Shown: positions 938-53,938 of the stretch, in pieces
Position numbering within the stretch: the stretch's first letter is position 1
Layout of the letters: every line of letters starts with the position of its first letter
NCBI GenBank assembly: GCA_937903325.1
Contig: CALCZR010000051.1
Coordinates: 1 to 55,375, forward strand
Source: an uncultured Candidatus Saccharibacteria bacterium
GTDB lineage: Bacteria; Patescibacteriota; Saccharimonadia; Saccharimonadales; AWTP1-31
Length of the DNA stretch: 55,375 nucleotides
Direction of reading: 5' to 3'
Notes under the pieces: generated by a model
Database searches by the model: none
Told to the model about the DNA's origin: nothing
The model's input: only the letters and a program-made list of their open reading frames with translations
Program-made: the position numbers and the translations under genes

Positions 938-1797
938 GTATGTTTAGACCTATGTTGGCAACACAAATACAAGATGCGCACAAGTTAGTTTATCCACTAT
1001 TTGCATCCCACAAGCTTGATGGCATTAGGGCGACTGTGCGTAAAGGGGTAGTATATAGCAGATCAAACAAGCCGATTCCTAACTTGCATGTACAAGCATT
1101 ATTCTCAGATTACGAACACCTAGACGGAGAGCTTATTTTGGGCGATCCATACGATGAGGATGTATTTAGCCGTACGACATCTGCTGTGATGCGACAGGAT
1201 GGCACCCCTGATGTAACATTTTATGTATTCGATCATATAAAGTATCCAGAGATATCGTATATAGATAGGCTATCTTTGATCTATAGTGCACCAAATGTAA
1301 TATCTTTACCGCAGACATATGTAACATCATATGGCGACGTATTAGATTTTGAAGGCAGAGCACTAGAGAGGGGCTATGAGGGTGTAATCCTAAGATCACC
1401 ATTTGCACCGTATAAATTCGGCAGGTCAACCTTAAGGTCACAACACCTACTTAAACTTAAGAGATTTACTGACGCCGAAGCAGAGATTGTTGGAGCAACT
1501 GAAAAGTTCCAAAACAACAATGAGCCGTACATTGACGATACAGGATACGTCAAAAGGAGCGAGATGAAGGATGGACTTGTAGGAACGGGAGTGCTTGGAT
1601 CATTTACCTGTGTAACAAAACATGGACTCGAGTTCAAGGTTGGTACTGGGTACACAGATGATGAGCGCAGCTATTATTGGGAGTACAAAGACGAATATAT
1701 TGGTAAAATACTTAAGTACAAGTATTTTGACGTTGGAGACTACGAAGTTCCAAGACACCCAGTATTCTTAGGCATTAGAGATGAGGCAGACCTTTAG
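934..1797 (+). CDS. ATP-dependent DNA ligase (small T7-like type)
   Basis: Adenylation motif I KxDG is present (SHKLDGIRAT). Motif III-like FYVFD, motif IV EGVILRS and motif V LLKLKR follow. The 287-aa length is typical of phage ligases. Confidence 0.85.
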   Translation: MSMFRPMLATQIQDAHKLVYPLFASHKLDGIRATVRKGVVYSRSNKPIPNLHVQALFSDYEHLDGELILGDPYDEDVFSRTTSAVMRQDGTPDVTFYVFDHIKYPEISYIDRLSLIYSAPNVISLPQTYVTSYGDVLDFEGRALERGYEGVILRSPFAPYKFGRSTLRSQHLLKLKRFTDAEAEIVGATEKFQNNNEPYIDDTGYVKRSEMKDGLVGTGVLGSFTCVTKHGLEFKVGTGYTDDERSYYWEYKDEYIGKILKYKYFDVGDYEVPRHPVFLGIRDEADL

Positions 1798-1814
1798 GAA
1801 TGGAGTCTGACTGA

Positions 1815-1843
1815 TTGCAATTACCAGTATTTAATGGTATACT
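1815..1843 (+). promoter_or_regulatory. candidate sigma70-type promoter overlapping a 9-bp stem-loop
   Basis: TTGCAA (1815-1820), a 17-nt spacer and TATACT (1838-1843). The same DNA forms the hairpin TACCAGTAT/ATACTGGTA (1822-1847). AAGGAG and the ATG lie downstream. Confidence 0.4.
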
Positions 1844-1866
1844 GGTAGTCCACCTTTTGAAAGGAG

Positions 1867-4800
1867 ATGGAAATGTCGTACGTATCAAATAAATTCATCC
1901 GGAACATCTTGCAAGAGCCGCCCAAGTGGGGTCCAATTGGTCAAATTGTATACCTACGTACATACAGTAGGTGGTTGCAGGACCAGGGTCGACGAGAGCA
2001 TTGGGGTGAGACAGTACGTAGGGTTGCGGATTATTCGGTTACATTAGATCCAACAATGACAGAACAGGAACGTGTCATTGAGGCAGAGAAGCTTTTTGAA
2101 ACTATATACCAAATGAGGGCATTCCCAGCTGGACGCACACTATGGGTTGGCGGTACTGAGCATAGTAAGACTCATGGTCAGAGTCAATTCAATTGCAGCT
2201 TTGCGAATATTAATTCATTAGATGATTTACATGACATAGTAATATTATTAATGAATGGAGTTGGCGTTGGAGTTGGCGTACGTACGGAAGAAGTTGACAG
2301 ATTCGCGTCTCAGGGCACCTTAAATCTAAATAAACAAGTTGTAGTTAAAGATTATGAATATATAGGTACTCCAGGTACGGGCGGTACGTATGATAAGTCT
2401 GACGGATCTGCATACTATACAATCCATGATAGCCGTGAAGGATGGGCAGAGTTTGTGCGAGACTTTCTTGGCGAATTATTATTTTCCCAAGATGTGCATA
2501 CGATCTACGTGAATCTAGACCACATTAGGCCTGAAGGTACTCCGCTTAAAACATTTGGTGGCAGAGCATCTGGGCCAAAAGCAGTAATAGACTTTATTGA
2601 TGGCATCCTGCAGATAACGCATGGCATGACTAAGATTAATGACATTTTCCTCCTTGATACAGCAAACATGCTAGGCAGGATGGTCGTAGCAGGTGGCACG
2701 CGAAGATGCTACCCCTCAGGTACAATAGTAAAAACTACAGATGGACCAATTGAGATCCAAAATGTAAAAGTTGGAATGAAAATAAGTACCCCAAAAGGAG
2801 AAAAGAGCGTAACAAATGTGTTCGACCAGGGCGTACAAAAAACGATAGCTGTGAATCACACATTTGGTAGCTTCCACTGCACCCCAAACCATCGAGTTGC
2901 AGTCTTTACAAGTATAAATGAGTGGGAATTCAAGGAAGCACAATACTTAACCCCGGAAGACAGGTTAGTCTGGGATTTTGAACCAATCCCGGGTACGCCA
3001 CAGAGGCTACCAACGCTTGAGGTTGTGCGTACATATGAGGCCTCATATGTAAGGAATGCAGGAAGGGCCGTAAAGTCTGTTAGATATCCAGATGTCACAT
3101 GTAGCGTAGATGGGTGTAGCCGTGGCTCAGCTACATTAAATGGTCCACACGGGGCACTATGTAATGCGCACTACCTGAGACTAAAGAAGTATGGGGATGC
3201 TCTTAAATTTAGAGGATGGGGTAGGGACGTCAATTTGCCAGAGTATATAGATACCGACCTAGCATGGCTTGTAGGGTACATACATGGTAATGGTCACGTT
3301 ATGAAAATAAGTGATTCAAAAGGCAGACTATCGATATCTTGTCCAACAGACCGACCCGAAATTATTGAGAAAGCGGCAGCTATGCTTACCACCCTGTGTC
3401 CAGACAGCAAAACTACAGTAAGGCAAGGAGATGGCAACTGGGTTAACATTATGGTATCCAATGCGAGACTTGTTTCCTGGCTATACGAATACGTGAAACG
3501 CCCATCCGAAGATATTACCATTCCAAGCTTTATAGCTATGGCAGAACCAGAAATTAGAGCAGCATACCTAGCTGGAGTATTCGACTCTGACGGTAGCATC
3601 CATAAGCACAATTTTAACGCAGTAGACACAATACATGAAGGTTTCGCAAATAGCATAGCGAAACTATACATGACACTTGGCATAGGAGCATCGGTAAAAC
3701 GTCGCGAGCGCAAAGAAGAAGGATGGAGCGACATATCTAGAGTTAGTATTATTGGCTCTGAATTTAAAGAGGCAGCACATGTCGCATTAAGACCATACGC
3801 ATCCACGAAGTTACAAGACAGCGTGCTCAACTGTAGAGGTAGTAATACTTTAACATTTAAACCTAAACAAAGCATGTCTGCAGGTGTTCCATCCGGAAGA
3901 GCTAGTGCCAATAGTGGAAACATGAGTCCAGCAGCGGTCCTTGAATATACAGACGTTAGCTTAATAGCCTACCCAGTGCCCGTCATATCAACTACGGAAG
4001 GTGTAACAGCTCAGACGTGGGATATCGAGGTTGAAGACATCCATCAATTTACAGCAGAAGGATTTGTTACACATAATAGCGCTCTTATAGCACTTGGAGA
4101 TTCAAAGTCAGTAGATTTTGAGAATGCCAAGATAGGTGATTGGTCGGAGCATTACCCATGGAGAGAGCAGGCAAACAACTCTAAAGTGTATTATTCAAAA
4201 CCAAGTAAGGAATCTATTAGAGAGGGATTTAAAAAGATTCTACAGTACGGAGAACCTGGCTTTATCAACGGCAACATGGCAAAATCTATCCGCAGAGATT
4301 GGGCTGGGTTAAACCCGTGCTTCACGGGAGATATGAGACTACTTACGGAAGATGGATGGGTGACGTTTAAAGATGCTTACGAACATGGTAGGCCGTTAAA
4401 GATCCTCCAGGATAGCCGAGTTACATATGAGGGAGAGGGAGAAGAAAAAGATGAACACTGGAAGATTGACCCAGAAAACACAGATTTACCAGTCATTACC
4501 CAAGCCTCACATGTGTTCTTAACCAGAAAGAACGCGGATATTGTGAAGTTAGAGTTTGTAGATGGAACTGTGTTAAGATGCACCCCCGACCATCTAATCG
4601 CAACAACCATTGGAATGGTTGAAGCAAGGAATCTAACTAAATACCATGATGTGTTGGCGCACAGAGTTGCTAGATGCGACCGGATTGCAAACTCAGAGCC
4701 AGAGACTGTTGAGCAACATAAGGCATTTGCTTTAGGAGCGATAGCTGCGTCAGGGTCCACCATGCTTAAATGGATCAAGCTGTGGGGCATGCAAAGCAGA

Positions 4801-6318
4801 GTGCAGGCTTCCATAAAGGCTGCGTACGGAGAAGAGCTAAAAGAAGATACGCATCGCAACATAAGTAAAGATGAGGTTAAGCGTCTAACCGGGTATAAGC
4901 CTATCGACTTACTTGACTCTGCTATCCCAGAGTGGATCTCAAGTAATGCTGACGACAAGGTGGGATCATGGTTTATCCGTGGCTTCCTGTCGATGGGGCT
5001 AAAGGAGCCCCGATATCCCAGTAAAGACGAAAGCTATTTTATGGAAATAGAAGAACCATCTATAGCATTTTTAGATAGCTTAAAAGATATGTTGTGGAGC
5101 AGAGGCATAAGCTCTGAATTTATTAAAACTAGAGACTGTCTATTCTATACGCCCACAAGTCTAGATGACCCAGGATACTACGGCACTGTATACACTATTA
5201 AGATTAATAGCGATATAGATATATATATGGACGCCATTGGCCTTACATTTAGCCTTCCGGACTATAAGTCGTCAACCGAAAAACCACGGCTTAAAAGATT
5301 GAAGTCCATTACGCCAGATGGCGTAGAGGATGTTTACTGCATCAAAGAAAATACACGGAGAACCTTGATTGTAGAAGGTATAGTAGCAAGAAGATGTGCG
5401 GAGATTTTGTTGTCTGACAAAGGATTTTGCAACCTTGTGACGACAAACTTAAAATACTTTGCAGAGCATGATAACGATGAACAAATGCTTAAAGATACGG
5501 TCGAAATTATAACCAGGCATAATTTACGCATTACAAATACAACTATCCATGGAGTGTCTCCCGAATGGGATATTGTGCAAAAGCGAGACCGCTTGTTGGG
5601 CGCATCATTTACAGGATATGGGGATCATGCAGATATCCTGGGCGAAGATGTAAGCCTTGCAACGCTTGGAAAAATGCGTAAATGGGTGAGGGAGGAGGCT
5701 AATAACTATGCAGATAAAATGGGGATCCCACACCCACTGCTTGCGACAACAGTTAAGCCAGAGGGTACTATCACACTCCTTTATGGGGCATCCAGTGGCA
5801 TACATGACGCATTCTCACCCTACTATATTCGTAGGGTGAGAATGAGCCGCACAGATGCACTTGCAGTCGTATTGGCAAAGATGGGAGTCCCAGTAGAGGA
5901 CGCAATCAACGCCCCTCAAACTGTGGTCTTCTCCTTCCCGGTAAAAACTGCAGCTAAACAAGCGGCAAGCAAAAAGTCTGCCGTTGAACAATTGGAGCGG
6001 TACAAGAATATCATGCAGACCTATGTTGACCATAACGCATCTAACACAATCTATATAGATGAGAGTGAGGTTGACGAAGTAGCCGATTGGCTACATGACA
6101 ACTGGGATTCATACGTGGCCGTGTCTTTCCTAGCTAAGTTTGGGCAATATGCACAAGCCCCAATGGAGGAAATTGACGAGGAAACATACAATAAACTTGC
6201 GGCCCAAATGCCAGACCTATCAGACTTACATGCCAGACTTGCGGAGGTGGAATACGAGATGTCAGCTGGAGATGAACTAGAAGGGTGTGATGTCGGTGGA
6301 TCTTGTCCTATACGATAA
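1867..6318 (+). CDS. nrdJ: class II (adenosylcobalamin-dependent) ribonucleotide reductase interrupted by two inteins
   Basis: The N-terminus VYLRTYSRW..REHWGETVRRV is NrdJ-like. Removing the inserts restores AGGTRR-SALIALGD and LNP-CAEILLSDKGFCNL. The C-terminal Cys pair is CDVGGSC. The extein is about 667 aa. The alternative ATG at 1873 has better SD spacing. Confidence 0.9.
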   Translation: MEMSYVSNKFIRNILQEPPKWGPIGQIVYLRTYSRWLQDQGRREHWGETVRRVADYSVTLDPTMTEQERVIEAEKLFETIYQMRAFPAGRTLWVGGTEHSKTHGQSQFNCSFANINSLDDLHDIVILLMNGVGVGVGVRTEEVDRFASQGTLNLNKQVVVKDYEYIGTPGTGGTYDKSDGSAYYTIHDSREGWAEFVRDFLGELLFSQDVHTIYVNLDHIRPEGTPLKTFGGRASGPKAVIDFIDGILQITHGMTKINDIFLLDTANMLGRMVVAGGTRRCYPSGTIVKTTDGPIEIQNVKVGMKISTPKGEKSVTNVFDQGVQKTIAVNHTFGSFHCTPNHRVAVFTSINEWEFKEAQYLTPEDRLVWDFEPIPGTPQRLPTLEVVRTYEASYVRNAGRAVKSVRYPDVTCSVDGCSRGSATLNGPHGALCNAHYLRLKKYGDALKFRGWGRDVNLPEYIDTDLAWLVGYIHGNGHVMKISDSKGRLSISCPTDRPEIIEKAAAMLTTLCPDSKTTVRQGDGNWVNIMVSNARLVSWLYEYVKRPSEDITIPSFIAMAEPEIRAAYLAGVFDSDGSIHKHNFNAVDTIHEGFANSIAKLYMTLGIGASVKRRERKEEGWSDISRVSIIGSEFKEAAHVALRPYASTKLQDSVLNCRGSNTLTFKPKQSMSAGVPSGRASANSGNMSPAAVLEYTDVSLIAYPVPVISTTEGVTAQTWDIEVEDIHQFTAEGFVTHNSALIALGDSKSVDFENAKIGDWSEHYPWREQANNSKVYYSKPSKESIREGFKKILQYGEPGFINGNMAKSIRRDWAGLNPCFTGDMRLLTEDGWVTFKDAYEHGRPLKILQDSRVTYEGEGEEKDEHWKIDPENTDLPVITQASHVFLTRKNADIVKLEFVDGTVLRCTPDHLIATTIGMVEARNLTKYHDVLAHRVARCDRIANSEPETVEQHKAFALGAIAASGSTMLKWIKLWGMQSRVQASIKAAYGEELKEDTHRNISKDEVKRLTGYKPIDLLDSAIPEWISSNADDKVGSWFIRGFLSMGLKEPRYPSKDESYFMEIEEPSIAFLDSLKDMLWSRGISSEFIKTRDCLFYTPTSLDDPGYYGTVYTIKINSDIDIYMDAIGLTFSLPDYKSSTEKPRLKRLKSITPDGVEDVYCIKENTRRTLIVEGIVARRCAEILLSDKGFCNLVTTNLKYFAEHDNDEQMLKDTVEIITRHNLRITNTTIHGVSPEWDIVQKRDRLLGASFTGYGDHADILGEDVSLATLGKMRKWVREEANNYADKMGIPHPLLATTVKPEGTITLLYGASSGIHDAFSPYYIRRVRMSRTDALAVVLAKMGVPVEDAINAPQTVVFSFPVKTAAKQAASKKSAVEQLERYKNIMQTYVDHNASNTIYIDESEVDEVADWLHDNWDSYVAVSFLAKFGQYAQAPMEEIDEETYNKLAAQMPDLSDLHARLAEVEYEMSAGDELEGCDVGGSCPIR
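2707..4077 (+). mobile_element. intein 1 (457 aa) with LAGLIDADG homing-endonuclease domain and a Cys/His zinc-ribbon-like insert
   Basis: It starts with Cys (CYPSGTIVKTTDG) and has block B CTPNH. The LAGLIDADG motifs are LAWLVGYIHGNGH and AAYLAGVFDSDGS. It ends with canonical FVTHN followed by +1 Ser. Confidence 0.85.
4318..5394 (+). mobile_element. intein 2 (359 aa), degenerate endonuclease domain, non-canonical Arg-Arg C-terminus
   Basis: Block A is CFTGDMRLLTEDGW and block B is LRCTPDH. The block F/G-like stretch VEDVYCIKENTRRTLIVEGIVARR is followed by +1 Cys. The insert lies inside the NPC(G/A)EI active-site motif. Confidence 0.75.
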
Positions 6319-6370
6319 TTAAACGCAGTTGAGACTTAAAAATCTGTAGACACAATTAGTAGTAAATGAT

Positions 6371-6403
6371 AAGATAAGAGGAGTAGAGGCCTCTTATCTT
6401 TTG
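6371..6403 (+). terminator. rho-independent terminator after nrdJ
   Basis: Stem AAGATAAGAGG / CCTCTTATCTT with an 8-nt loop, followed by TTG. Confidence 0.6.
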
Positions 6404-6421
6404 CTTCTACAGGAGGGTAAA

Positions 6422-6514
6422 ATGTATATAACACCAGGCGAAACACTCCTACTTATACTTATGATCCTAGTAGCACTAGGACTGTTCCAAGGAGAAGAAA
6501 AAGATGATGACTGA
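6422..6514 (+). CDS. small membrane peptide (30 aa), not in ORF track
   Basis: AGGAGG lies 4 nt upstream of the ATG. The product MYITPGETLLLILMILVALGLFQGEEKDDD has a hydrophobic core and an acidic tail. Confidence 0.4.
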   Translation: MYITPGETLLLILMILVALGLFQGEEKDDD

Positions 6515-6773
6515 TAGTAATAGGATCACAGAGAAGAAAGTAAGGAAAGTTCTGTCATCAGAAATGTCGCCCGGTAGGATTGCATTTTACTTTACCGAGC
6601 TTGATACTGTTAGAGTGGATGGCGTAGACCTTACGACTATTATAGCGTATATCGAATACATAGAAAATAGTATTAGAGGCACTAAAGAAGGTAGAGAGGC
6701 GTTGGAATTGGAGTTATTTGGTGTAATCGATCCCACACTATGCTTTATCGAGTTTGAGTGGGCGAGGGAATGA
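6504..6773 (+). CDS. hypothetical protein (89 aa)
   Basis: Open frame with AAGGAG 9 nt upstream. Confidence 0.6.
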   Translation: MMTDSNRITEKKVRKVLSSEMSPGRIAFYFTELDTVRVDGVDLTTIIAYIEYIENSIRGTKEGREALELELFGVIDPTLCFIEFEWARE

Positions 6774-6901
6774 AGGAATTTATGGACGCAATAGACACGT
6801 TAACTCTACTAAGAGACATTACGATCTTGTTTGGATCAGCAACAGTAGTGCTTGTGATTCTATACGTAATAGCAATATTCCAAAGAGAGGACGACAAATG
6901 A
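6770..6901 (+). CDS. small single-pass membrane protein (43 aa), not in ORF track
   Basis: ATGA overlaps occur at both ends (6770-6773 and 6898-6901). The product is MKEFMDAIDTLTLLRDITILFGSATVVLVILYVIAIFQREDDK. Confidence 0.5.
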   Translation: MKEFMDAIDTLTLLRDITILFGSATVVLVILYVIAIFQREDDK

Positions 6902-7533
6902 TACTCACAGACTGGATGATTAATAGTATTGGACATAGGCTAGTTAAAGAGTTTGATTCGTCACTAGTTAATCCAGCATCTCTTGACTGCAGACTTGCTG
7001 ACGACATTAAGCTACAAGTGTTCCACGGCATTGAGCTACCAGATCTTCCGGCCAGACTGTTTCCAGACGGCACGATGGAATTGTCTGTACTTGGCGATGT
7101 ATTCCGTACCAGATCTTACTTCCACAAGGGTGACGCATTTCTAGCATCAACCGTGGAGTCATTTACGCTCCCTCGCTGGTTATCATTCCAATGGATCGAC
7201 AAGTCAAGCACGGGTAGAGAGGGTTTGGCACACAGACATGCAGGATGGGCAGAAGCAGATTGGCATGGCAATTTAACACTTGAGTACGATGTAGCACGAT
7301 CAGGATCTCTCGTTCCGTTCCAGCCTATTGGTCAAGTGGTATTTCAAACCACATTCGTAGCTAGTCCGTATAGCAAGAGGAAGAACAGTAGATACCACAA
7401 GCAAGTAGGAACAGTAAGTAATAAGAATAAGAAGCAGCTCGCCTTTACAGCGTCAGCACCTGGGACTTACGGACATCAAATGGCAATGCTACGTAATATA
7501 CTGATCGCTATGTCGAAAGAATCTAATGGATGA
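6898..7533 (+). CDS. dCTP deaminase / dUTPase-superfamily protein
   Basis: The N-terminus is MILTDWMI....VNPASLDCRLAD. The core is SSTGREGLAHRHAGWAEADWHGNLTLEY...IGQVVFQ. This matches the dCTP-deaminase pattern (G.SS.AR.G...AG.ID.GF.G..TLE...I.Q..F). The track ORF 6754.. carries a spurious N-terminal extension. Confidence 0.6.
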   Translation: MILTDWMINSIGHRLVKEFDSSLVNPASLDCRLADDIKLQVFHGIELPDLPARLFPDGTMELSVLGDVFRTRSYFHKGDAFLASTVESFTLPRWLSFQWIDKSSTGREGLAHRHAGWAEADWHGNLTLEYDVARSGSLVPFQPIGQVVFQTTFVASPYSKRKNSRYHKQVGTVSNKNKKQLAFTASAPGTYGHQMAMLRNILIAMSKESNG

Positions 7534-7747: not shown

Positions 7748-7961
7748 GATATTTGTAGTCTATTTTACTACAGACACAGATGTTGAAATCTTTGGGCTTT
7801 ACAGGTCACTAGACGACGCAAAAGATGCAGCCTTTGAGTATTTTGGATGGGATAGAGGAGACTTTAAGTTTAGGTATATAGCAGACGATGGAGAGACAGA
7901 ACTGTACGCATACAAAGATGATAGCTACACGCTCCTTATAGAAAGGATGGAAGTTAAATAA
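7740..7961 (+). CDS. hypothetical protein (73 aa), paralog of the previous gene
   Basis: Open frame. The junction sequence aatggATGAg is duplicated. Confidence 0.55.
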   Translation: MDEIFVVYFTTDTDVEIFGLYRSLDDAKDAAFEYFGWDRGDFKFRYIADDGETELYAYKDDSYTLLIERMEVK

Positions 7962-8647
7962 TGTTACAACTAGACCCACTAAATGACGGAATTTCATCTG
8001 TGCAGTTGGTAGAGCATCTCGGAGGGGATCGTAGTATAACCCAGGCTGCACGAGTGTCATTTGCCAATGATCTAACTGTGTACACAGACGAAAGAGACTA
8101 TAAGCTTATTAGGTTCCTACTAAAAGAAGGGCACGGTACGCCATTTGAATCAAACCTGCTTAAGTTCAGAATTAAATGCCCTATCTTTGTAGATCGCCAT
8201 TTCGTCAAATATCGTGCAGGCGTATCCAAATCAGAGCAGTCTTTGAGATACACAGAGGTACAAGATGAGTTTTATATCCCAAATGAATTCCGTTCTCAGT
8301 CTAAATCAAACAGACAGGCATCGATCGAGGGTGGCTTAACGGAGGGTCAGCAAACTTCTGCCAGGAAAAGAGTTACCGAAGCTAACTTCAATGCACTCGC
8401 GGTGTACAAAGACTTGCTTAGGATTGGCGTAGCAAGAGAACAGGCACGAGCAGTACTACCTCTGAGCACTTACGTAGCCAGTTATTACACCATGAACCTG
8501 CGTGCACTCCTGCATATTATTGCACAGAGAGATCATGCAGACGCCCAGTGGGAGACTAGACAGTTCGCAATCGCTATGAGACAGCTTGCGGAACCACTTT
8601 TCCCAATGACATTTAGAGCGCTCGAAGAACTGAGGCTACACAAATGA
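7961..8647 (+). CDS. thyX: flavin-dependent thymidylate synthase
   Basis: ThyX signature RH(R/F)xxxRxxxSxSExSxRY is present as VDRHFVKYRAGVSKSEQSLRY. The 228-aa length fits. Confidence 0.85.
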   Translation: MLQLDPLNDGISSVQLVEHLGGDRSITQAARVSFANDLTVYTDERDYKLIRFLLKEGHGTPFESNLLKFRIKCPIFVDRHFVKYRAGVSKSEQSLRYTEVQDEFYIPNEFRSQSKSNRQASIEGGLTEGQQTSARKRVTEANFNALAVYKDLLRIGVAREQARAVLPLSTYVASYYTMNLRALLHIIAQRDHADAQWETRQFAIAMRQLAEPLFPMTFRALEELRLHK

Positions 8648-9325: not shown

Positions 9326-9560
9326 GGCTTGGCCAACATTAGATGAAATCCTTGAAGAAATAGAGACAAATACTGCACATAGAGAGGTAACAGATGCCAT
9401 AAACAAGACTAAGATATGGGGCACGTTTGGGGATAGGGCAGTTATAGAGGACATAATGTTAGCCCGGAGAGTTAAGCAATACGCACAACAAATTGGGTTG
9501 GACGTAGTTGTAGTTGGATCAGGCGAGGATTACGATGACGAAGATGAAGATGATTTTTAG
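9162..9560 (+). CDS. membrane-anchored protein with acidic C-terminus (132 aa)
   Basis: GGAGG lies 9 nt upstream. The N-terminus is basic, followed by the TM segment IAKLALAIFGVSIGTLLVY and the acidic tail EDYDDEDEDDF. Confidence 0.55.
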   Translation: MTSTGRMKELLQRLSKKSRGSPIAKLALAIFGVSIGTLLVYTWRKRNQKTSTKYEAWPTLDEILEEIETNTAHREVTDAINKTKIWGTFGDRAVIEDIMLARRVKQYAQQIGLDVVVVGSGEDYDDEDEDDF

Positions 9561-10200
9561 TGCACTAGCAGCAACGGTCTCAATCGCAACAGCAGCAGCG
9601 CCAAGTGCGGTAATGAAGGCTAGTCAAGCGGCTGCTAACATTATGCTCCAGGACAAGAACACGAATAATTGGATGACTATTTGTTCTGGATCATTCGTGG
9701 ATTTGCCTCTATTTAAGGGTGAGAAAGTTATTGTAACAGCTGGCCACTGCGTAGATGACTTGCCTAATAATGCTTACTCTGCCCATTTATTTAACAAGGA
9801 CGATGTCGACCTTGAACTTGTAGACCATATGTTTGCATGGCCTATTGGAGACTACGCTATCTTCCGGGTAGTAGAAAAAGATCAGGCTGCACTTAAGAAC
9901 ATTAAGCCACTTAAAGTTGGAAAGAAATTGTCCACACCAGGAGAGCCTGTTTATATGTTTAGTGGACCACTTGGCACAGTGTTAAACTATTACGAGGGAT
10001 ATTACTCTGGCAAGATGGGGTGGGTGGATAGTCCAACCTCAGTTGACGAAATGGATTGGGTCATCATGAATGCCGCACCAGGCTCATCTGGATCTGTTGT
10101 ACTTAACGCTAAAGGCGAAGCAGTCGGAATACTGGTTGCTGGAATGGATACAGATGTAAAACTTTTTGGGGCTTTATTGTCAGACCTACCTCTTAATTAA
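9535..10200 (+). CDS. secreted trypsin-like (S1 family) serine protease
   Basis: The signal-peptide-like N-terminus is MTKMKMIFSALAATVSIATAAA. The catalytic triad motifs are TAGHCV (His), DYAIFRV (Asp) and APGSSGSVV (Ser). GAGGA lies 5 nt upstream of the ATG at 9535. Confidence 0.7.
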   Translation: MTKMKMIFSALAATVSIATAAAPSAVMKASQAAANIMLQDKNTNNWMTICSGSFVDLPLFKGEKVIVTAGHCVDDLPNNAYSAHLFNKDDVDLELVDHMFAWPIGDYAIFRVVEKDQAALKNIKPLKVGKKLSTPGEPVYMFSGPLGTVLNYYEGYYSGKMGWVDSPTSVDEMDWVIMNAAPGSSGSVVLNAKGEAVGILVAGMDTDVKLFGALLSDLPLN

Positions 10201-22536: not shown

Positions 22537-22983
22537 TTACTCCTCCAGTAGTCCTATGGACATATCGTAGCTATAAAAATATCTCAATTCCTCGCCATCT
22601 AGTTGCACGAAGACAGGCTCTTTTAACATTATACACTTATTCCAGACCTTAGTGGACCCGTCGAACGTTGTGTAGTTTTCAGTCACAGTAAATGTGGCAG
22701 TAAGGATGTCGTCTAGGTTCCATAGGTTCATCAGGAGTTGAGCCATACTGCCAGGTATAGCATATCCATCTGGGGACTTTATGTTTAAAACTTTAACAAC
22801 TGCCTTTTTCCCAAATACGTAATATGTTTGTCCATTTATATTACTGCCAGTAGTAACAGCCCTTGGTCGCTCTAGGCTAACGCTACCCCTAGGGGGTAGG
22901 TAGCTATAGGGTACCAAAAGGGAGAGATCTTCAAACTTAATATCCTTAATTTGTAATTCATTGCTTATAACCGTCATTAGCAA
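22537..22983 (-). CDS. hypothetical tail protein immediately after the tape measure (148 aa)
   Basis: Open frame that overlaps the TMP stop. Its position is typical of a distal tail protein. Confidence 0.55.
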   Translation of the reverse strand: MLMTVISNELQIKDIKFEDLSLLVPYSYLPPRGSVSLERPRAVTTGSNINGQTYYVFGKKAVVKVLNIKSPDGYAIPGSMAQLLMNLWNLDDILTATFTVTENYTTFDGSTKVWNKCIMLKEPVFVQLDGEELRYFYSYDMSIGLLEE

Positions 22984-25900
22984 CCTCCTCCAAGATTTTC
23001 GAATTCATTCTTAATAAGTATCTTGATGTTTCTCCACAGTTTGGGTACGTCTTCTGGCGCCACCGACTGAGTATTCACATTCTGTGTTATATCGCCGAAG
23101 TTAAAGTTCACCGTCTTACTATTATCAACTGGTTGTAGACCAGATCTCTCTGGCGTAGATGGAGTAGGGGACTGAGGTACGTATGTGTCAGGCTTAGATA
23201 TCTCATCTTTTATAGATCTAAGTATATCTATTGCCCTCTCAGTATAGTCTCTCAGACTTCTTTGTGCAGCATCTGACCAGCTCTTGTTGGCTTCCAATAT
23301 TCTCTTAATAGCATCAGTTACGCCAGCAAGAGTATTGTCGCCAGATCTGCCTTTTGTATCTTTGAGCTGCTGTCTCAGTATTTCCGTAGCGAGCTCAGCC
23401 TGTTTTACTCTCTCTTCGTTTATCTTGATATTTGCAGCTAGGTCGCTCTCCCTTTGGTCTAATTCCATATTCTTCAGTCTGCCGGCATATCTTTCTTTAT
23501 ACTCTGCCTCAGCTTTTGTAGCTTGCGCCATAGCCTTTCTAGCCTCAAGTTCTGCTTTCTCTGCCTCAAGTATCTGCTGGCTTAGGTTAGCCTGTCTATC
23601 CGCGAATTGTTTAGCTGCCCTAGCTTGCTCACTTGCAAGGTCTGCCATCGCTTGAGAGGCTGCAGCCGCAGAGTATAATGATGTAGTTACTGCCTCGGCT
23701 TGATTTACTGATTCACGCGCAAGACCTATCTCTGCCTCTAGTTTTGCTATTGGTGCGCGTACCTTTAGTTTCTCAAGAGTCAACCTGTCTGCTGCCATTA
23801 CTGTGGCCTGATCGTATTTATCAAATCGCCTTTGGTACTCCTTTAATACATCGGCTTCGGTCTTCTTGTATACCGCAGCAGCCTCTATCTCCATATCGGC
23901 TCTAATATTTCTTGCTGTAGCTATTTTCTCTGTGGCTTTAGCCTCTTGCTCGGCCGCTCTCTTTTGTGCCATGTATGTTTCAAGTTCTGTTTTCGCGATA
24001 TTATCTTTGTTTTTAATCTTCTTTTGATTGATCGCTTTGCTAATTTCTCCTTCTACTCTTGCGTTCTCTAGCTTGTTGGTGGCTATCTGTTCGTTAACCT
24101 CAGCTTCCTTGAGTTTAGCTTTGTACAAGGCTTGATTGGCAGCCACCTCCTCTTTCGCTGACGCGGCTCGAATTTCGTTTTGTATAGCGATCGCTTTTAC
24201 AGCCTCTGCGTTATATCTATTATCTATTGCTATGCCTTCATTAATTAATTTCTGTTGAGTCAAGTACTCTTTAGCTAAATCTTCGGCAAGTTTTTTATTT
24301 GTAGCGCTGCTAGCATTGTTATCTATAAAACTTAGTTTTGATGGATCATTCAGCTTGCTAAAATCTCTATTCTCCTGCTTAGGTTGAGCATTGCTAGATA
24401 GATCCTTGATCATCGGACTTCCATTTTGGAAAGTTTTTACAAATAGATTTAGAGCATTAGCTAGATTATTCTGCGATTCATTTATAGCATCCTGCCTAGC
24501 TTTTTTAGCCTCTTCTTCTGCTTTTGCTATTTCGCTTGCTTTCTTCCTTGCCAGAGTTATAACTTTAGGATCTAAACCAAATCCGTCCGATATAGACTTC
24601 TTAATCTCTGATCCCGCAGCCTCAGCAGCGCTATTAAAGTTTTTAACAAAGCCTTGCCTGTCTTGCTCTGCGCTTGTAAGGTCATTTAATGCAGACGAGA
24701 TCATTTGAGCAGTAGCCGTGCTGTCTTTAAGTAGGCTACTTAGACGGGTAGCTAATTGCGTTTTAAGTTGAGAGGCTGAATTTATTAGATCTTCATATAC
24801 AGCCATCTGTTCTCTGGCATTTGATTTTGTAAGTGGCTCAGCAGCTGCTGAGAAAACCTGTTGCGCAGACATTACACTCTTAGATAGAGTTATTGCATTT
24901 TGTATTTGGTCTTCATAGGCCTTTGCCAAACTGTCTAGAGCAGATCTTTGACTCTGTATGGCAGAGGTCATCTGAGATATAGCATTCGTTGCCGTTGAAA
25001 CATCCGATGCAAGTATCTGCCCGTTGTTGCTTAATTTAGATAGTATTTCATTGGCCATATTGCCGGCTTGACTCAGTGTCCTGTTGGCATCTGATAGTGC
25101 TCGCTGTGCCTGGATAACGCCAGAATCTATGCCGGATGGCTGATACGACAGGGCATTTCCAAGATTGAATTGTGCATTTGCAAGTTGCTCTCTGACTCTA
25201 ATATCGTTAATCTCTGCATCTCTAAGTTGTTTGCGTGCATCCACTTCTTTGGCAATTGCATCTAAATACTGTGACTGCAACTGATTCCTTTCTTTGGCAT
25301 TTGCGATCTGCTCATCAATCGACCTAGCAGGCTTGCTGTCTAACAGCTCTATTTCCTTAAGCTTTTGAGCTCTTTCTGAGATTGCAGAGTTTATAGCTAA
25401 CTGTGCATCTAGTACTGTATTGCCATCTGAGCCCTGTAGTTTAAGATTTACGGACGCCTGTTTTTCGAGCAGCTGAATTTGACTATTCTGGAGATCTAGT
25501 TGGGACTTTTGCCTACTATAAATAGCATCTTCTATTGCCGACATATCCCTTCTGATGTCGGCCTGTTTTTGCAGCACAGTTATAAGGGCAGCGTTCCTTT
25601 CTTCCTGATTCTTGGCCATAGCAAGTTTTGTATTTGCAACAGCAAGGTCCATTTGGTCTACCAGTAGCTTTTGCTGTGCACTTTTTACGATATCCTTCTC
25701 GGCTCCAGATATCGCAGCACTTAAAGCGAGTTGCGCCTGTGCAATAGCAGTTTGTTGCTCCATGGACTTGATTATTTTCTGCTTCTGCGCATCCTCTAGT
25801 CTAGCTCTATCTTGTGCAGCTTTGATTTGAGCATTTACTAAGTCTAATTCAGCCTTTTGTCTATCGTCATTATTTGTAGCAAGCGCTAGTTTTTGCTGCG

Positions 25901-28900
25901 CTAGCGCTACTAGTTGTTCATCAGCAGCTATTTGAGCCATAAGGCTTTCGATACTACCTTCGTCATATCCGGCCTGCAGCAGACTTAGCTGAGCCTTTGC
26001 GTATTGTATATCTATCGATGCACGTTGAGACTCTATCCCGGCATCTTGTAGAGACTTCTGATCCTCATACTGTTTCTTCAGGACTTGATTAATCTGTATC
26101 GATATTCTCTTCTTCTCGTTGATGTCGCTTGTAGTAGCAAGTTGTTCTTGTAATATACCTACAAGCTCTGCATCGGTAGCTAGATTGAGTTGGGCCTGAT
26201 TTGCGGCAGTATTCTGGCCAGATGCCACAAGGCTTAACTCTCTTGCGGACACAGACTGATCAAGTGATAGCTTCCTGTTATCCGCTATAGACTTGGCTTT
26301 TGCGTCCTGGAGATTGAGCAGATTGAGTTGCTCGTCGTAAAGCTGCTTCATCAACTGCTCTTTAGCAACCTTACTCGATGTGGCCTGGAGCTGTGTTTTT
26401 AATACATCAACCAATTCGCTAGACCTAGATGCCTGGATACGTATTGCCTCAACTGAGTCTTGTCCGTATCCAGCTTGTCTTGCTTCTAGTACCAGTTGTG
26501 CATTCAGGAGGTCTATGCTTGCTCGTCTTTGATTGGCTATGAGCTCAACTTTTTGCTGGTTAAGAGTCAGTATTTTTCCTTCTTGCTCTAGGATGGCAAC
26601 TTCATTGTCTTTGCCCGCATTAGATCCTGGTGCAAAATCTAACCTTCTCGCTCTTAATATTTCCAGTGATTTGACTGCTGCGTTGATTTGGATCGTCTGT
26701 GCAGCAACCTCGTCGCCAGCCTGGGTCGTTAGCGCGAGTCTTGCCTGTGCGATCCTGAGGTCTCTCTCGTTCTGATCGTTGGAGTCTTTAAATCTCAGGT
26801 CTGCTTCAAGTTTAACAAGTTCATTCTTCTGTTTCTGGATTTCCAGGAATTTATCTTGATAATCCTGATAAGCCTTACCGTAGCTAACCAAGTCTTGCGC
26901 AGTTCTGAGTTCTTCAGCGATTAGCGCCAACTTACGCTGTGCTATATCTATCTCTATCTTAGCGTTCTCAACTTGATCGTTGCCTATGCCAGATATATCC
27001 AGTGCAAGCTTACGTCTTTTCTCTTCTCGGTCAAGCAGCTGATTTGCGCTTGATAGTTCAGCTTCGGCCAAGTTCTTTCTAGCCTCTGCCTCTTGCTGCA
27101 GTGCTGTGGATACATCTTTGTTCGCAGATCTACCTGCTGCACTATCTAAGCCTCTGGAGTTTGATGGCAAGGAGCTTAGTCTTTCCTCGGCTACCCTTCT
27201 GCGCTCCTCGGCAATCTTTAAATCTGTTCTAGCGGTCTCAACTGCATCCCTGGATTTGCCAGCAATTGCATCTTGGGCCTTAAGGATTGCTTCTTTGGTC
27301 TGCAGTTCATCTGTTTGGATCTTAAACAGCTCTTCTTGCTTCTGTTTTTGCAGATCAATGCTGTTAGCCTGCTCATTAACAACATCAACATTCCGCTGAG
27401 CTATATCTTTAACAATTTGAGCCGCAGAGGCCTTGTAGCTACCAGCAGTATTTACATCTCCGGCCTTCTGAGCTGCTTCTGCTAAGGACAGATATTTATC
27501 TCTAAGTGTTCCTAGCGCACTTATTTCATCCTTATAGATCTTGACCTGTTCTTTAGACTGATCAATGCGAGCCTGGTAAACATTTAGTACCTGCGAATCT
27601 GTGACTGCAGTTTTGCTCTGTAGGTTGATCTCAGCCTGCTTAAGAGATATAAGGGCCTGCACTGACTCTTTTTGTTGTGCCAATCCATCTAATTCGACTT
27701 GCACCCTCTTCTGCACAATACCATCAATATCTCTATTGAGTTGCAAGACTTGAGCCAGAGCGTCTAGTCTTTCTTTTTCAGACGACGGGTTCTTTAAGAT
27801 ATCCAATTGTATCTTAAGCTGTTCTCTCATCCTCTCCAAGATTGCATCCAGTATTGCTGTCTTTTGCCCTTCAGGTGCAGCGGAGTCTAATTGGTATTGC
27901 AACGATTCTATATCTAGCTTTAGGGCCTGCTCTCTTATTTGTTTCTGGTCTGCGAGTATCTGATTTCGCCTATCATATACTTCGTTTAGTTTATCCTCAA
28001 TAGATGATACTTCTGCTGCTCGCTCTTGTGGATCCTGATTCTGTTTCGCAATCTCAAGTCTTCTCTTCCAGTAGTCTTCATAAAGAGATAGTGCTTGTTC
28101 GTACGCTTTTGCATCCTGACTCTTATCATACGTTCTGCCAGCAAGAGTTGCAGTTCTGTCTGCTGCATTATCATTAAGGTTGCGCTGGTACAGATTAGCT
28201 GCAGCAGTTTTGGCTTGCTCTGCTTTTGAGTTTGCTTGATCAATGAGACCCTGTAGCCTAGTCAGTAGGGCTTGTTGTGCTGGTGTGGCAACGCCTGCTC
28301 TGTCTATCAGGTCCTTAATTTGTTGCATCTGTTCTTTCGCTTTTTCGACCACAGATAGGTATTTGCCTGCCGCTTGATCGATAAACTTAGATAGACTGTT
28401 GTCTTGGTTGTTTATAGCTGCATTGAGCTGCTTAGAGGTATCTTCTACGCCCTTAATCAACTCTGGAGTCTTACGCGTAAATTCATCAAGGTTAGATTGC
28501 TGCTGGTCCTTAACTTTCTTGGCAAATTCATTTATTAAGCTGGCTGATCTACTGTTTCCAGCCGTAGCTTGGGTCTTAGATTCTGCCTCTAATTTAGTTT
28601 GTAGAGCTTTAAGTTCTTTGGCTGATAGAGTGTCGATAAACCTAGTCTCGTTCTCATAGAGCGCCCTCTGTTGATCAAGCTTAGTTTTGTAGTACGTCTC
28701 ATTAAGTGCGCGCCTATGGTCGGATACCTGTTTATCAAAGCTAATCTCTGAATCTCTTATCTGCTCTGCGTATTTGATATTAATGCTCTTGATCTGCTCG
28801 CTATAGTTTGCTTTAGCAGTCTGGACTATTTGCCCCCTTTGAGCTGTGTTATCAACCTTAGATGCGTCACGCAGTGTAGCTTCGAGCTGCTGTTTTGCTA

Positions 28901-31900
28901 CACTCTTTTCGACCTTGGCCTGCTCTTCTGCGATGCGTTTGGTGTTCGAAAGTATTTTCTCTCTATATTTTGCATCTATGTCTATCTTCTTTTGTACATT
29001 ATCTCTAGCAATATCCAATTCGCTTGCGTATTGCTTCTCGACAACTGACCCATAGTTTTTAAGCAGCTCAAGTTGTATGTTTATAGATTGCTGTCTAAGT
29101 GCAACAATTTTATTGTTCACTTCAGCTTCTTTGTCTACCCTTTGTTGCTCAATAACTTTTTGATCTACAGCTTCTTTTTGTCTAGCTACTTTAATTGCCT
29201 CAGACTTATTCTTCTCTGATTGGGTCACGGCAGAAGATAGGTCTGCAATCTGAGATGGATTAGCATTCTTGCTTTGCTGGGCCTGCTGGAGATTCTTTCT
29301 TGCCAATTCTATTTGTTTATTGTACTTAGTCTCCAGATCCTTAAGCTCTTGTTCGAGTTCTAGTTTACGTTTCTGTGACTGATCCTTAAGGATAGAGGTT
29401 TTCTCTTTCTCGATCGCAGCGAAATCATCTGCATTCTTAGCCTTTGCATCAATCACAGCTTTATCAACTGCAGCCGCCTTAAGATTATTCTCAAGTGCAG
29501 TAAATTTATCAACATATGCCTGGTATGCTTTTGCATTGCCAGAGATCTCTGGGATGTCGTCGAGTCCCTTAATTAGTTCTCTTATACCCGCAGAAATATC
29601 AAGGAATGTCTTATCTAGCCCTTGATCCTTAATTTCTTTAAATCTAAGCGCGGTAGACTGAGCTCTTTCATTGAGTGCATCAATAGACTTCTGGGTTTCG
29701 TCAGACACAGAGAATGTGGAAGCAGTATCTACTGCATACTTCTTCAGCTCAGCCTGGATTTCGGCCCTAGTCTTGTTAAGACTCGCAATCGCGTCTTGTA
29801 TCTCTTTAACGCTTGTATCTGGAGATTGGCCAAGAGTTTTAACTTTGTCAAGCTGTACTACTTCCCTAGCTCTCAGATTTCCAAGCTCAGGAGATACCCT
29901 GTTACCCTCTGCTCTAGCCTTCTTTAGAGACTCTAAAAACTGTGTATTCTTCTCGATCTGCTTCTCAGATGCAGCTGCCATATCTTCATAGTTCTTGGTT
30001 GCGAATGCGATTGCGCCACCGAGTGCTACAAATGCCGCTGTTGCTGTTGCGATAACTGGATTGAGTACCAATAGCGCAGATGCCTTTTGGAATAGTCCAA
30101 CTGATACGGCTGCAAGTTTTGCAGAGAGCGAAAGTCTTGCAAATGCAATGTTTGTACCGGCCAAGGTTACGATACCGGCCTGACCAAGTGGGATCGCTAG
30201 AGCTGTAACTGTATTGTATGCTGCTACGCCAACTGCTGCCAGTTTAGATGCATTGGAGATGAAAAGTGCTGCAGCACCTAATGCAAGAAGCGACTGGGTA
30301 AATGCAGGAGTGGACGAAAGTGTATTAAGTACATCTCTAAACCCTCCAACAACAGCTGTTGCGGCTTTTAGCCCTGCAACAAGGCTTGGTCCAACGAGTT
30401 GAAACAGGTTAGTGCCAGCATCTTTTGCTGATGCCTTAAGTTGGTCAAGGCTACCAGTAAATGTCTTACTCAGAGTCTCTGCATAGTCTTGTGCGGCACC
30501 TTTACCATCACGGTACTTATTGGCAAGACCCTCCACACCATCAGAGAGAGACAGGATTGCTGCGAATCCTCTAGTTCTAAATAGTGTTGACGCTGCTGCT
30601 ACTGCATCTGCATTTCCCCTGATCTCACCAGTTAATTCATCATATGTAACTCTAGCATTTGACAGTACGTGAACAAGGTCAAATATGATGTCTCTACCCT
30701 GCCTAGTCTTACCCGCACTATCAACAAGATCTACCCCCAGCTGTTTGGCTGCATTCCTAAATGCTACCGTTGGAGATGTGGCTGCAGCAAGCACGTTACG
30801 AAGTGCAGTTGCTCCTTTATCGGCAGCGCTCAAACCTTTATTATCCAACTGTACAAGTGCCGCAAGTGTCTCTTCGAAGCTAAATCCTGCTTGTTTAGCA
30901 ATAGCACCCACAGTATTAAGGCCCTTTGAGAGATCAGATTGGGTGCCTACAGCGTCATTGGATGCGAGGGTGAGGCTATCAACTGCTCGTGCAGCATCTT
31001 TTGCGGTCATTTGAAACTGTAGCAAGTTTCTGGTTAGCTCTATTGCTGTGTCTGAAAGGTTTGTGCCTTCGGCGCTGGCCAGGAATGATGCCTGCTTAAG
31101 GATCTCTAGGCCTTCTGCGCCAGTCTGTCCTGCCCGAGTAAGGTTTGCGAGCGCCTCTGCATAATCTGCCAATCCACGCCTAGCAGTTGATATATCTGTA
31201 TCTCTAATTGCCTCAAGACTTGTCTTCACAGCTTTAAGCGTCTCAACTCCGTTGGCCTTAAGGATTGCGAATGCATTCTCAAGCTTTTGGCCCTGCTCTA
31301 CAGCCGTTGCTCCGAGTGCAATCAGAACTCCTATGAGGGCTCCAATGGACGTTACGAGAGCGATCGTATTAAATTTGCCTAAAGTAGTGGTTGTATTGTA
31401 TAAACCCATAGACTCGGCAACTCGACCAGTCCAATAAAACATACTAGACATCTGTGGGCTAATCAATCCAATTGCCCCAGCAAATGATCTCGCATAGTTA
31501 CTATACAGGCCAAAGCTTTGACCAAGTTGAGATATCTGATTAACTCCAGTGGTTGGGAGCTGTATATTTACATTAATCCCATTGAGCTTCTGGAGTGTTG
31601 GGATCAGCTGATTAAGAGCTTGAGTCACTCTACTTACATCAAGTTTTGCAATGTCATTAAGAGACTTAAGGTTAAGGTTTACGTTGATACCCTCTAGGGA
31701 CTTGAGTGCCTTTGCAAGCTGCGGTATCTGCGTTAATACATTCTGTATGTTTAGACTAGACAAAGCCTGTATGCCAGTTAGTCCTATGTTTAACTTAATA
31801 CCGTTTAATGATTTTACGGAAGCCGCAAAGCCAGATAGCTGGGTCGTAATGTTACCAAGGTTAAGGGTAGATAATTTTTGTAACTCTGATAGATTGACGC

Positions 31901-32360: not shown

Positions 32361-32839
32361 TACTTCCACCCTCCAAGTAACTTATTAAATATTGCTTCCA
32401 TGGTTATCCTTGATTTTACTGTGGCCGGCATTATAAATGGACCAGGCAGCATATAGTTTATACCAGATCGACCAAAGGTAATCCCTTTACCTTGTGACGC
32501 CTCTGATAATTGTTGTAGCAATCCTGGATCTATTTCTGAGGTTCCAGATCCATACTCTATGTCAGATGCATAGTCTACGCTCGATGCAAGCTTGATCGTA
32601 AACACGCCATTCTTCGAAATGTCTGATGCGCTGGTGTTGCCGAGCGACTTAAGGTTCCCCGTTCTTATGTACACAGCTCCAGGCGCGGTCCCGTACACCG
32701 ATGCAAATAGATTGGCCTGCAGATCATTGTTTGCTTGATCTACAATTGGCTTAATCGCACTGGTTAATCCAGTCTCAATTTCAGCCAGAAATCTATCTAC
32801 TTCAGATTTAAATTTTAGTCCTTCAGTCCTAATCCCCAT
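32360..32839 (-). CDS. HK97 gp10-like tail-completion family protein
   Basis: The motif DYASDIEYGSGT resembles the YA..vE.GT signature of the gp10 family. It sits unusually between the GT chaperone and the TMP. Confidence 0.45.
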   Translation of the reverse strand: MGIRTEGLKFKSEVDRFLAEIETGLTSAIKPIVDQANNDLQANLFASVYGTAPGAVYIRTGNLKSLGNTSASDISKNGVFTIKLASSVDYASDIEYGSGTSEIDPGLLQQLSEASQGKGITFGRSGINYMLPGPFIMPATVKSRITMEAIFNKLLGGWK

Positions 32840-42600: not shown

Positions 42601-42660
42601 AGCACAAAATCATATCTTCAACCACTGGGTGGTGCCTGTAAACTGCTTTTTTAGGATTGT

Positions 42661-42745
42661 TGTCTAGGACGCAATAATGCTCTAGGTTAGTACATAAAGA
42701 GTATAAAACACAGTAAAATAATTAATACTTATATAGTACTTATTA
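42661..42745 (-). repeat. conserved intergenic element, copy A (minus orientation)
   Basis: The reverse complement reads AGTACTATATAAGTATTAATTATTTTACTGTGTTTTATACTCTTTATGTACTAACCTAGAGCATT... It is near-identical to copies B, C and D. Confidence 0.8.
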
Positions 42746-42844: not shown

Positions 42845-42910
42845 TATATAGTACTTAATTAGTATTAGATATTTGTTCTGTGTTTTATATTCTTTATGTA
42901 CTAACCTAGG
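42845..42910 (+). repeat. conserved intergenic element, copy B
   Basis: The sequence is ATATAGTACTTAATTAGTATTAGATATTTGTTCTGTGTTTTATATTCTTTATGTACTAACCTAGG. It forms an inverted pair with copy A. Confidence 0.8.
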
Positions 42911-48349: not shown

Positions 48350-48431
48350 ATATATACTATATAAGTACTTAACTAGTACTGTGCTTTATATCTTTTATGT
48401 ACTAACCTAGAGCATTTCGCTGGCTAGGACG
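48350..48431 (+). repeat. conserved intergenic element, copy C
   Basis: The sequence is ...TATATAAGTACTTAACTAGTACTGTGCTTTATATCTTTTATGTACTAACCTAGAGCATTTCGCTGGCTAGGACG. Confidence 0.8.
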
Positions 48432-53865: not shown

Positions 53866-53938
53866 TATATATACTTATTATTTTACTGTGTTTTATATCT
53901 TTTATGTACTAACCTAGAGCATTTCGACGTCTAGGACG
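53866..53938 (+). repeat. conserved intergenic element, copy D
   Basis: The sequence is TATAGTACTATATATATACTTATTATTTTACTGTGTTTTATATCTTTTATGTACTAACCTAGAGCATTTCGACGTCTAGGACG. Confidence 0.8.

Follow-up and report, generated by a model that had tools for sequence, protein, structure and literature searches.

Inteins ending in arginine at the catalytic cysteine of viral class II ribonucleotide reductases

We describe an intein that ends in arginine, encoded within the class II ribonucleotide reductase (RNR) gene of a 55,375-nucleotide contig deposited for an uncultured Candidatus Saccharibacteria bacterium (GenBank assembly GCA_937903325.1, contig CALCZR010000051.1; this whole stretch is referred to below as the window). 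Comparative sequence analysis suggests that this element, intein 2 of the gene, is a functional splicing element of a new Arg-terminated clade in which the C-terminal cleavage step has been replaced, probably by cyclization of the terminal Arg; on balance, we consider this reading moderately probable. [quoted passage not shown] In the Arg-terminated clade these residues appear to have been replaced as a set, with Arg in place of the block-F His and the terminal Asn or Gln, and usually also in place of the penultimate His.

The host open reading frame (ORF) contains the Pfam domains RNR_Alpha, RNR-II_ins_dom and Ribonuc_red_lgC together with intein and LAGLIDADG domains, and is interrupted by two in-frame inserts, both of them inteins (Table 1). 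Excision of both leaves an RTPR-type reductase that is 53% identical to Deinococcus RTPR and about 45% identical to the RNRs of Thermus phages. The spliced sequence keeps the catalytic motifs FNCSF, NPCAE and FCNL and the C-terminal CxxxxC, and has the RNR barrel, the finger-loop Asn-x-Cys-x-Glu, the redox Cys pair and the C-terminal Cys pair of a class II RNR; no second RNR alpha homologue was found in the window. Intein 2 is inserted between the Pro and the thiyl-radical Cys of the NP/CAEI motif (a slash marks a splice junction throughout), and removal of its 359 codons rejoins ...WAGLNP/CAEILLSDKGFCNL and restores NP-CAEI. It begins with CFTGDM..., and its block F/G-like end, DVYCIKENTRRTLIVEGIVARR, closes with the codons AGA AGA, followed by TGT for the +1 Cys.

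Intein 2 has much of what defines a class 1 intein: an in-frame removal that restores the host protein, Cys1, the TxxH of block B (Thr89 and His92) and the +1 Cys. It lacks the C-terminal features of that class, in that its terminal residue is Arg and not a cyclizable Asn (rarely Gln, Asp or Glu), and both positions of the assisting His residues, F:13 and G:6, are occupied by Arg (R348 and R358). The NCBIfam profile intein_Nterm (TIGR01445) matches intein 2 with 29 bits, above its cutoff of 24.5, while intein_Cterm (TIGR01443) does not match it, though intein 1 of the same ORF does match; the Pfam profile Intein_splicing reaches 24 bits, below its cutoff of 35.8. An AlphaFold2 model built from a 55-sequence alignment (pLDDT 85.6, pTM 0.80) is of the Hint fold; its top Foldseek matches in the PDB are the endonuclease-containing inteins TliVMA (7qsu), PI-PfuI (1dq3) and PI-SceI, along with many mini-inteins, and I-Tsp061I joins PI-PfuI, PI-SceI and TliVMA among the matches to the middle domain. 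A LAGLIDADG homing endonuclease has two LAGLIDADG helices that each terminate in a catalytic Asp or Glu. These acidic residues are replaced in the window (GDG to ASG, DG to MG) and in two relatives, P0001 and P0003, and are kept as GDG and DG in distant Arg-terminated members; the endonuclease of intein 2 is probably inactive, to judge from these replacements. An initial annotation of the window had already recognized an intein in the catalytic-Cys finger loop with good blocks A and B, an F/G-like end, an Arg-Arg terminus and LAGLIDADG-like motifs without their acids, and all of this stands; its account of the intein anatomy made no mention of the second, canonical intein in the same ORF.

A search with the extein recovered P0001 (locus L001) and P0003 (locus L002), both of which have this intein inserted at the same position, with the ending ...ENTRRTLIVEGIVARR/CAEILL (ARR/C); the last intein codon is AGG in L001 and AGA in the window. 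A third protein, P0002 (locus L003), carries an unrelated, canonical intein at exactly the same site (...TVHSGN/CAEILL). The flanking DNA of L001 and L003 is 94.8% identical upstream and 98.1% identical downstream; homology is lost about 15 nucleotides into the intein and picks up again with the first nucleotide of the codon for the +1 Cys, and the breakpoints of the window against L003 likewise fall at 4333 and 5395. Because DNA homology to the canonical-intein allele breaks exactly at Arg/Cys, the mobile element is seen from the alignments to end with the Arg codon. L001 and L003 are near-isogenic and derive from the same sample series (SRR31616091 and SRR31616034), and so present a complete swap between an Arg-terminated and an Asn-terminated intein, a natural allelic pair.

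We regard as negligible the probability that the Arg end stems from faulty sequencing or assembly, from a wrongly placed junction, from recoding or from removal of the insert at the RNA level. We found nothing in favor of such an explanation, the identical end occurs in independent assemblies from different samples, and the homology break at R/C contradicts it. A junction at an internal Asn (KEN/T) is rejected by the same break and by the alignment of the terminal Arg with the terminal Asn or Gln of relatives. The genetic code is standard, because conserved Arg positions in the exteins use AGA and AGG codons, and reassignment of AGA is therefore rejected; a search of positions 1700-6500 against Rfam found no intron, which disposes of a group I or group II intron or other RNA element in the gene. 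The initial annotation had named two findings that would have overturned the Arg end at this level, namely CAY AAY at the junction and a true junction at an Asn, Gln or Asp elsewhere; the relatives do not have the former, and the position of the homology break excludes the latter.

To delimit the family, 1.84 billion representative proteins were searched exhaustively with HMMER, and 123 hits were obtained. The HMMER sequences, together with the window and with P0001, P0002 and P0003 from the extein search, include 59 that carry an intein at the NP/C.../C-x-E site of an RNR; the terminal residue is Arg in 42 of these (the window included), Asn in ten and Gln in seven. IMG/VR adds a further 11 Arg-terminated members to give 53, all at the NP/C site of class II RNRs, and the hosts include reductases of both the RTPR and the NrdJ_Z type. 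Most of the Arg-terminated inteins end in xRR and some in AVR, AQR, MSR, VAR or AAR, and natural mini-inteins of 158-162 residues (P0122, P0132 and P0164) retain the Arg end.

When a strict degenerate DNA pattern written for the block F/G end was run against IMG/VR, it matched 14 loci, on viral contigs of 12-340 kb; the same pattern matched nowhere in 185,579 genomes representing bacterial and archaeal species, with the proviso that the patterns required Asp/Val-Tyr-Cys and the +1 Cys, so that divergent members or members at other sites could escape them. Four matches to a relaxed pattern in bacterial genomes were random and not inteins, and a pattern without the +3 Glu requirement yielded no true extra member in the viral contigs, its single additional match also being random. 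No GenBank phage matched the gene by megablast, and tblastn of the intein against cultured phages gave only an unrelated canonical mini-intein of DnaB type from a Streptococcus phage. A word-indexed protein search with the intein alone matched nothing, though P0001 and P0003, whose splicing domains are about 65-85% identical to it, are in the same database; this negative reflects the sensitivity of the search, a shortfall that the HMMER and extein searches made good. The clade is thus seen, as far as these sequence collections reach, only in viral and metagenomic sequence and only at the NP/C site of class II RNRs. It appears to be new to description: we found no account of an Arg-terminated intein in the full-text literature, a search that excluded subscription-only papers, where an earlier mention is possible.

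Comparison of the 53 Arg-terminated inteins with 17 that end in Asn or Gln, counting back from the +1 Cys, shows that the terminal Arg does not vary alone. Position -12, that of the block-F catalytic His, is Arg in every one of the 53 and in none of the 17, where it is His (12), Asn (3), Ala (1) or Glu (1). The penultimate residue is Arg in 43 of the Arg-terminated inteins and Ala in seven, against Arg in three of the 17, and F:4 is Cys in 52 of the 53 and in 13 of the 17. When all columns were compared between the 42 Arg-terminated sequences of the protein search and 14 relatives ending in Asn or Gln (P0002, P0195 and P0205 being left out), the class-specific columns were -12, -1 and Trp48 and, less so, -2, with no others; Cys1, the Thr and His of block B and the +1 Cys are essentially invariant in the Arg-terminated group. 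The Arg codon at -12 is variously AGA, AGG, CGC, CGA or CGT across the family, and the terminal Arg codon AGA, AGG or CGA. Because the codons for the invariant Arg residues span both the AGR and the CGN families, selection appears to act on the amino acid.

In a neighbor-joining tree the Arg-terminated inteins form one large group, within which four members ending in Asn or Gln are nested (VKN, VRN, TRQ and MRQ). P0156, which ends in VRN and has His at -12, is 54% identical to P0131, which ends in VRR and has Arg at -12. Each of the changes His to Arg and Gln to Arg takes a single A-to-G transition in the codon table, and so the path from H...H-Q through H...R-Q to R...R-R would be short.

Pairwise dN/dS (Nei-Gojobori) among the window, L001 and L002 is 0.009-0.06 for the exteins, with dS saturated or about 1.2, and 0.066 for the first 115 residues of intein 2, its N-terminal splicing domain, with dS about 1.2 or saturated. 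The middle domain gives 0.18 (window against L002) and the last 45 residues of the intein 0.24-0.33, with the final 26 residues nearly identical. These ratios show strong purifying selection on both the exteins and the splicing domain in a set of relatives that have without exception retained ARR/C, and a dead precursor is unlikely because the RNR exteins are so constrained. The initial annotation offered the reading of a splicing-dead intein and an inactive RNR. The corresponding rival, in which the C-terminal junction no longer works and the RNR is inactive or decaying, could draw on the absence of every residue known for step 3, on the loss of the catalytic acids of the homing endonuclease and on the IMG/VR locus L009, which has only the C-terminal half of the gene. 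At L009 (1456-3453) the C-terminal part of an Arg-terminated intein, from within the endonuclease domain, is fused to the C-extein, with all upstream frames closed; this may reflect a chimeric contig, decay of the copy or fracture of the gene. The reading is contradicted by the low extein dN/dS (0.01-0.06, with dS saturated) of three phages, each of which retains the intein, by intact ORFs with the RNR catalytic residues kept, by the persistence of the terminal and -12 Arg in 53 diverged members despite synonymous codon turnover, and by the same end in mini-inteins that have no endonuclease. We consider it highly improbable, and decay of the gene in relatives, which the same annotation had set, together with proteomics showing only unspliced precursor, as a ground for abandoning its claim, is not what the relatives show.

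We propose the following course for splicing of intein 2. The first two steps would be canonical because their residues are conserved: an N-S acyl shift at Cys1, aided by the Thr and His of block B, followed by passage of the N-extein to the +1 Cys. The Arg/Cys peptide bond would then be cleaved autocatalytically in the absence of Asn. In the version that we prefer, the N-epsilon of the terminal Arg attacks its own carbonyl to give a six-membered lactam; this nitrogen would occupy the same topological position, and form a ring of the same size, as the attacking nitrogen of the C-terminal Gln in sister inteins, and the two neighboring Arg residues would lower its pKa and stabilize the oxyanion. 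A final S-N shift would ligate the exteins and free the active RNR. Carboxyl-activated Arg is well known to form a lactam as a side reaction in peptide synthesis. That the C-terminal bond is broken by an undescribed chemistry was among the possibilities raised in the initial annotation; it fits the data best, and it gains strength from the fact that terminal Arg and block-F Arg are strictly coupled.

Several points weigh against this proposal. Guanidinium is a very poor nucleophile at physiological pH, and to our knowledge no intein with a C-terminal Arg has ever been demonstrated to splice. Excision and extein ligation by intein 2 are inferred from the selection to which the exteins are subject, the three Arg residues are placed in space by homology to canonical blocks F and G, and the tree of the family was built without bootstrap. 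All Arg-terminated members come from metagenome assemblies and none from a cultured phage. The Cys at F:4 is nearly invariant too and could be the true actor. The C-terminal residues of splicing inteins that have been reviewed are confined to Asn, Gln, Asp and Glu (PMC4031507).

The role of the F:4 Cys leads to the main mechanistic rival, in which splicing is autonomous, thiol chemistry cuts the C-terminal bond and Arg serves only to position the bond or stabilize the oxyanion. Either the +1 Cys would undergo an N-S acyl shift onto the Arg carbonyl, with the freed amine taking the N-extein from Cys1, or the block-F Cys341 and the block-B His92 would act as a protease-like dyad. The near-invariance of F:4 Cys, the +1 Cys present in all members and the confinement of the family to a site with Cys at +1 agree with such chemistry, and class 3 inteins use the F:4 Cys as a proven nucleophile (PMC4031507). 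Yet the F:4 Cys is also found in most of the relatives ending in Asn or Gln and is hence not specific to the Arg end, and the position that does covary is F:13, which serves the cyclizing residue in canonical inteins (PMC4031507); we therefore judge thiol chemistry to be a serious but unlikely explanation. Help in trans, also suggested by the initial annotation, would have a host or phage protease cut after Arg-Arg, the freed amine of the +1 Cys then capturing the Cys1 thioester. RR/C resembles a dibasic cleavage site, and the window encodes a trypsin-like peptidase (Pfam Trypsin_2) at 9514-10200; however, the N-terminus of this peptidase resembles a signal peptide, so that it appears to be secreted, the same peptidase lies beside the canonical-intein allele L003, and it was not found in 14 other Arg-intein loci, which leaves it unsupported as a helper. 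The penultimate Ala of some members, the nature of the invariant partner, an Arg of block F that is buried rather than exposed at the surface, and the spread of the family over very different phages (contigs of 12-340 kb) also speak against a trans-acting factor, which we hold to be improbable and less likely than the thiol route, no linked helper gene having been found.

More tentatively, and with somewhat less than even confidence, we suggest that the Arg-terminated inteins may constitute a fourth mechanistic class, recognizable by Cys1, Trp48, the block-B TxxH, a block-F Cys and Arg, and Arg-Arg before the +1 Cys. Members of such a class would act as arginine peptide lyases that form a six-membered lactam, or would use another Asn-independent step, and would have arisen from Gln-terminated ancestors through single A-to-G changes, in phage class II RNRs only.

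The closest mechanistic comparison is with class 1 inteins that end in Gln (Chilo iridescent virus RNR and Pyrococcus abyssi Pol II; PMC4031507), which share with intein 2 the Cys1, the block-B TxxH, the +1 nucleophile, the Hint fold and a long-side-chain, non-Asn end. Cyclization through a six-membered ring is accepted for Gln-ending inteins, and seven members of the intein 2 family end in Gln; the terminal Arg of intein 2, in contrast, has neither carboxamide nor carboxylate, and its block-F and penultimate His are both Arg. Class 3 (WCT) inteins, such as that of mycobacteriophage Bethlehem DnaB, resemble the clade in their F:4 Cys, their association with phages and a covarying signature that marks a mechanistic variant. 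They have no N-terminal nucleophile but still end in Asn, whereas the intein 2 clade has an invariant Cys1 and an altered C-terminal step; intein 2 also has neither the block-B Trp nor the block-G Thr of the WCT triplet (G:5 is Ala or Val), and is not a class 3 intein. Its location at the RNR catalytic Cys, together with its +1 Cys, sets it apart from bacterial intein-like (BIL) domains, which are Hint domains of variable proteins that are not essential, lie away from conserved sites and usually have no +1 nucleophile.

The canonical intein of P0002 (L003) shares its insertion point with intein 2 to the nucleotide, in the same gene neighborhood and in an RNR about 90% identical to the window extein, but is unrelated in sequence, ends in Asn and has an intact LAGLIDADG_3 domain. 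The inteins of Bacillus phage SPbeta bnrdE and related class I RNRs of cultured phages are 25-28% identical to intein 2 over their full length and occupy the homologous catalytic-Cys site (NL/C.../C[ST]E); their hosts are class I RNRs, and all of the ends examined are canonical Asn or Gln (TGN, TSN, TGQ, AGN). By sequence, the PDB entry closest to the N-terminal splicing region is the NrdJ-1 split intein from a metagenomic NrdJ (8ubs), with very weak similarity (E = 0.03); NrdJ-1 differs from intein 2 in being split and is unrelated to it in block F/G. A survey of mycobacteriophage inteins reported only the loss of the penultimate His (PMC5050341).

Table 1. Features of the RNR gene and its inteins. 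Coordinates are positions in the window; residue numbers within intein 2 count from Cys1.
Feature	Coordinates	Strand	Extent	Basis
Class II (RTPR-like, adenosylcobalamin) RNR precursor	1867-6318	+	1483 aa; spliced extein 667 aa	Pfam, identity, motifs
Intein 1, canonical, C...THN/S	2707-4077	+	457 aa (aa 281-737)	LAGLIDADG endonuclease and HNH-like Cys motif; passes TIGR01443
Intein 2, Arg-terminated	4318-5394	+	359 aa (aa 818-1176)	Both ends set by the DNA homology break against the canonical-intein phage
Block A, CFTGDMRLLTEDGW; Cys1 (4318-4320), predicted N-terminal nucleophile	4318-4359	+		Cys1 invariant in 40 of 40 aligned Arg-terminated inteins; TIGR01445 match
Trp48 (HWKID), signature of the Arg-terminated clade	4459-4461	+		Trp in 95% of Arg-terminated inteins vs 21% of relatives ending in Asn or Gln
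Block B T-P-D-H (Thr89, His92; LRCTPDH)	4582-4593	+		Thr in 95% and His in 98% of Arg-terminated inteins
LAGLIDADG-fold middle domain, both catalytic acids replaced (AFALGAIAASGS, SWFIRGFLSMGL)	4675-5262	+		Foldseek; alignment to intact members
Block F start D-V-Y-C; Cys341 at F:4 (5338-5340)	5329-5340	+		Cys in 52 of 53 Arg-terminated inteins and 13 of 17 ending in Asn or Gln
Arg348 (AGA) at the block-F catalytic His position, 12 residues before the +1 Cys	5359-5361	+		Arg in 53 of 53 Arg-terminated inteins and 0 of 17 ending in Asn or Gln
Penultimate Arg358 and terminal Arg359 (AGA AGA), in place of His-Asn	5389-5394	+		Penultimate Arg in 43 of 53
+1 Cys (RNR thiyl-radical Cys; 5395-5397), Ala and +3 catalytic Glu of the C-extein	5395-5403	+		+1 Cys and +3 Glu invariant; L003 homology resumes at 5395

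The HNH-like segment of intein 1, the canonical neighbor of intein 2, has the form CxxC...CxxH. Intein 1 is 88% identical to the intein of P0004, yet the RNR exteins of the same pair are only 69% identical, and this contrast suggests recent horizontal transfer of the intein by homing. It is absent from L001, L002 and L003.

The RNR gene is flanked by genes for an ATP-dependent DNA ligase (934-1797), a dCTP deaminase-like protein (6754-7533) and ThyX (7961-8647), and this module is syntenic in L001, L002 and L003. L002 has an additional ORF of 77 residues between the ligase and the RNR (2519-2752 of that locus) that the window does not have; its RNR ORF is intact from MEMSNY, the JGI gene call beginning 64 codons late. 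The trypsin-like peptidase lies in the nucleotide-metabolism and early region and is conserved in L001 and L003. Elsewhere in the window, a 3130-residue ORF occupies 22977-32369 (minus strand) in the structural module, and a full-length DNA polymerase III alpha with PHP, DNA_pol3_alpha, finger and HHH_6 domains is encoded at 48881-52342 (minus strand). An intergenic repeat of about 40-80 nucleotides with the core TACTGTGTTTTATATCTTTTATGTACTAACCTAGAGCATT occurs in both orientations at 42649-42729, 42861-42909, 48364-48416 and 53872-53931, and also in the first 80 or so nucleotides of L001 and L003 and at 619-733 of L002; it is a candidate promoter or regulatory element of the phage. The window has a GC content of 43%, and its terminase is at most 35-42% identical to those of cultured relatives; because the terminase has no close cultured relative, the window represents a new phage lineage.

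The three accepted intein classes share their third step, the cyclization of a terminal Asn, Gln, Asp or Glu. The Arg-terminated clade implies either that a guanidino group carries out this step or that the Hint fold has a second way to cut the C-terminal junction, and either outcome would revise the textbook mechanism of protein splicing and add a self-cleaving chemistry for protein engineering, for example one with a different pH or redox dependence. Intein finders based on His-Asn systematically overlook this phage-specific group, to which intein_Cterm is blind and for which Pfam Intein_splicing stays below threshold. The question is directly testable; natural mini-inteins of 158-162 residues and the matched VRR and VRN pair at 54% identity are available. 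If these inteins do form a fourth class, the cleavage of a peptide bond that they perform would be a chemistry new to biology.

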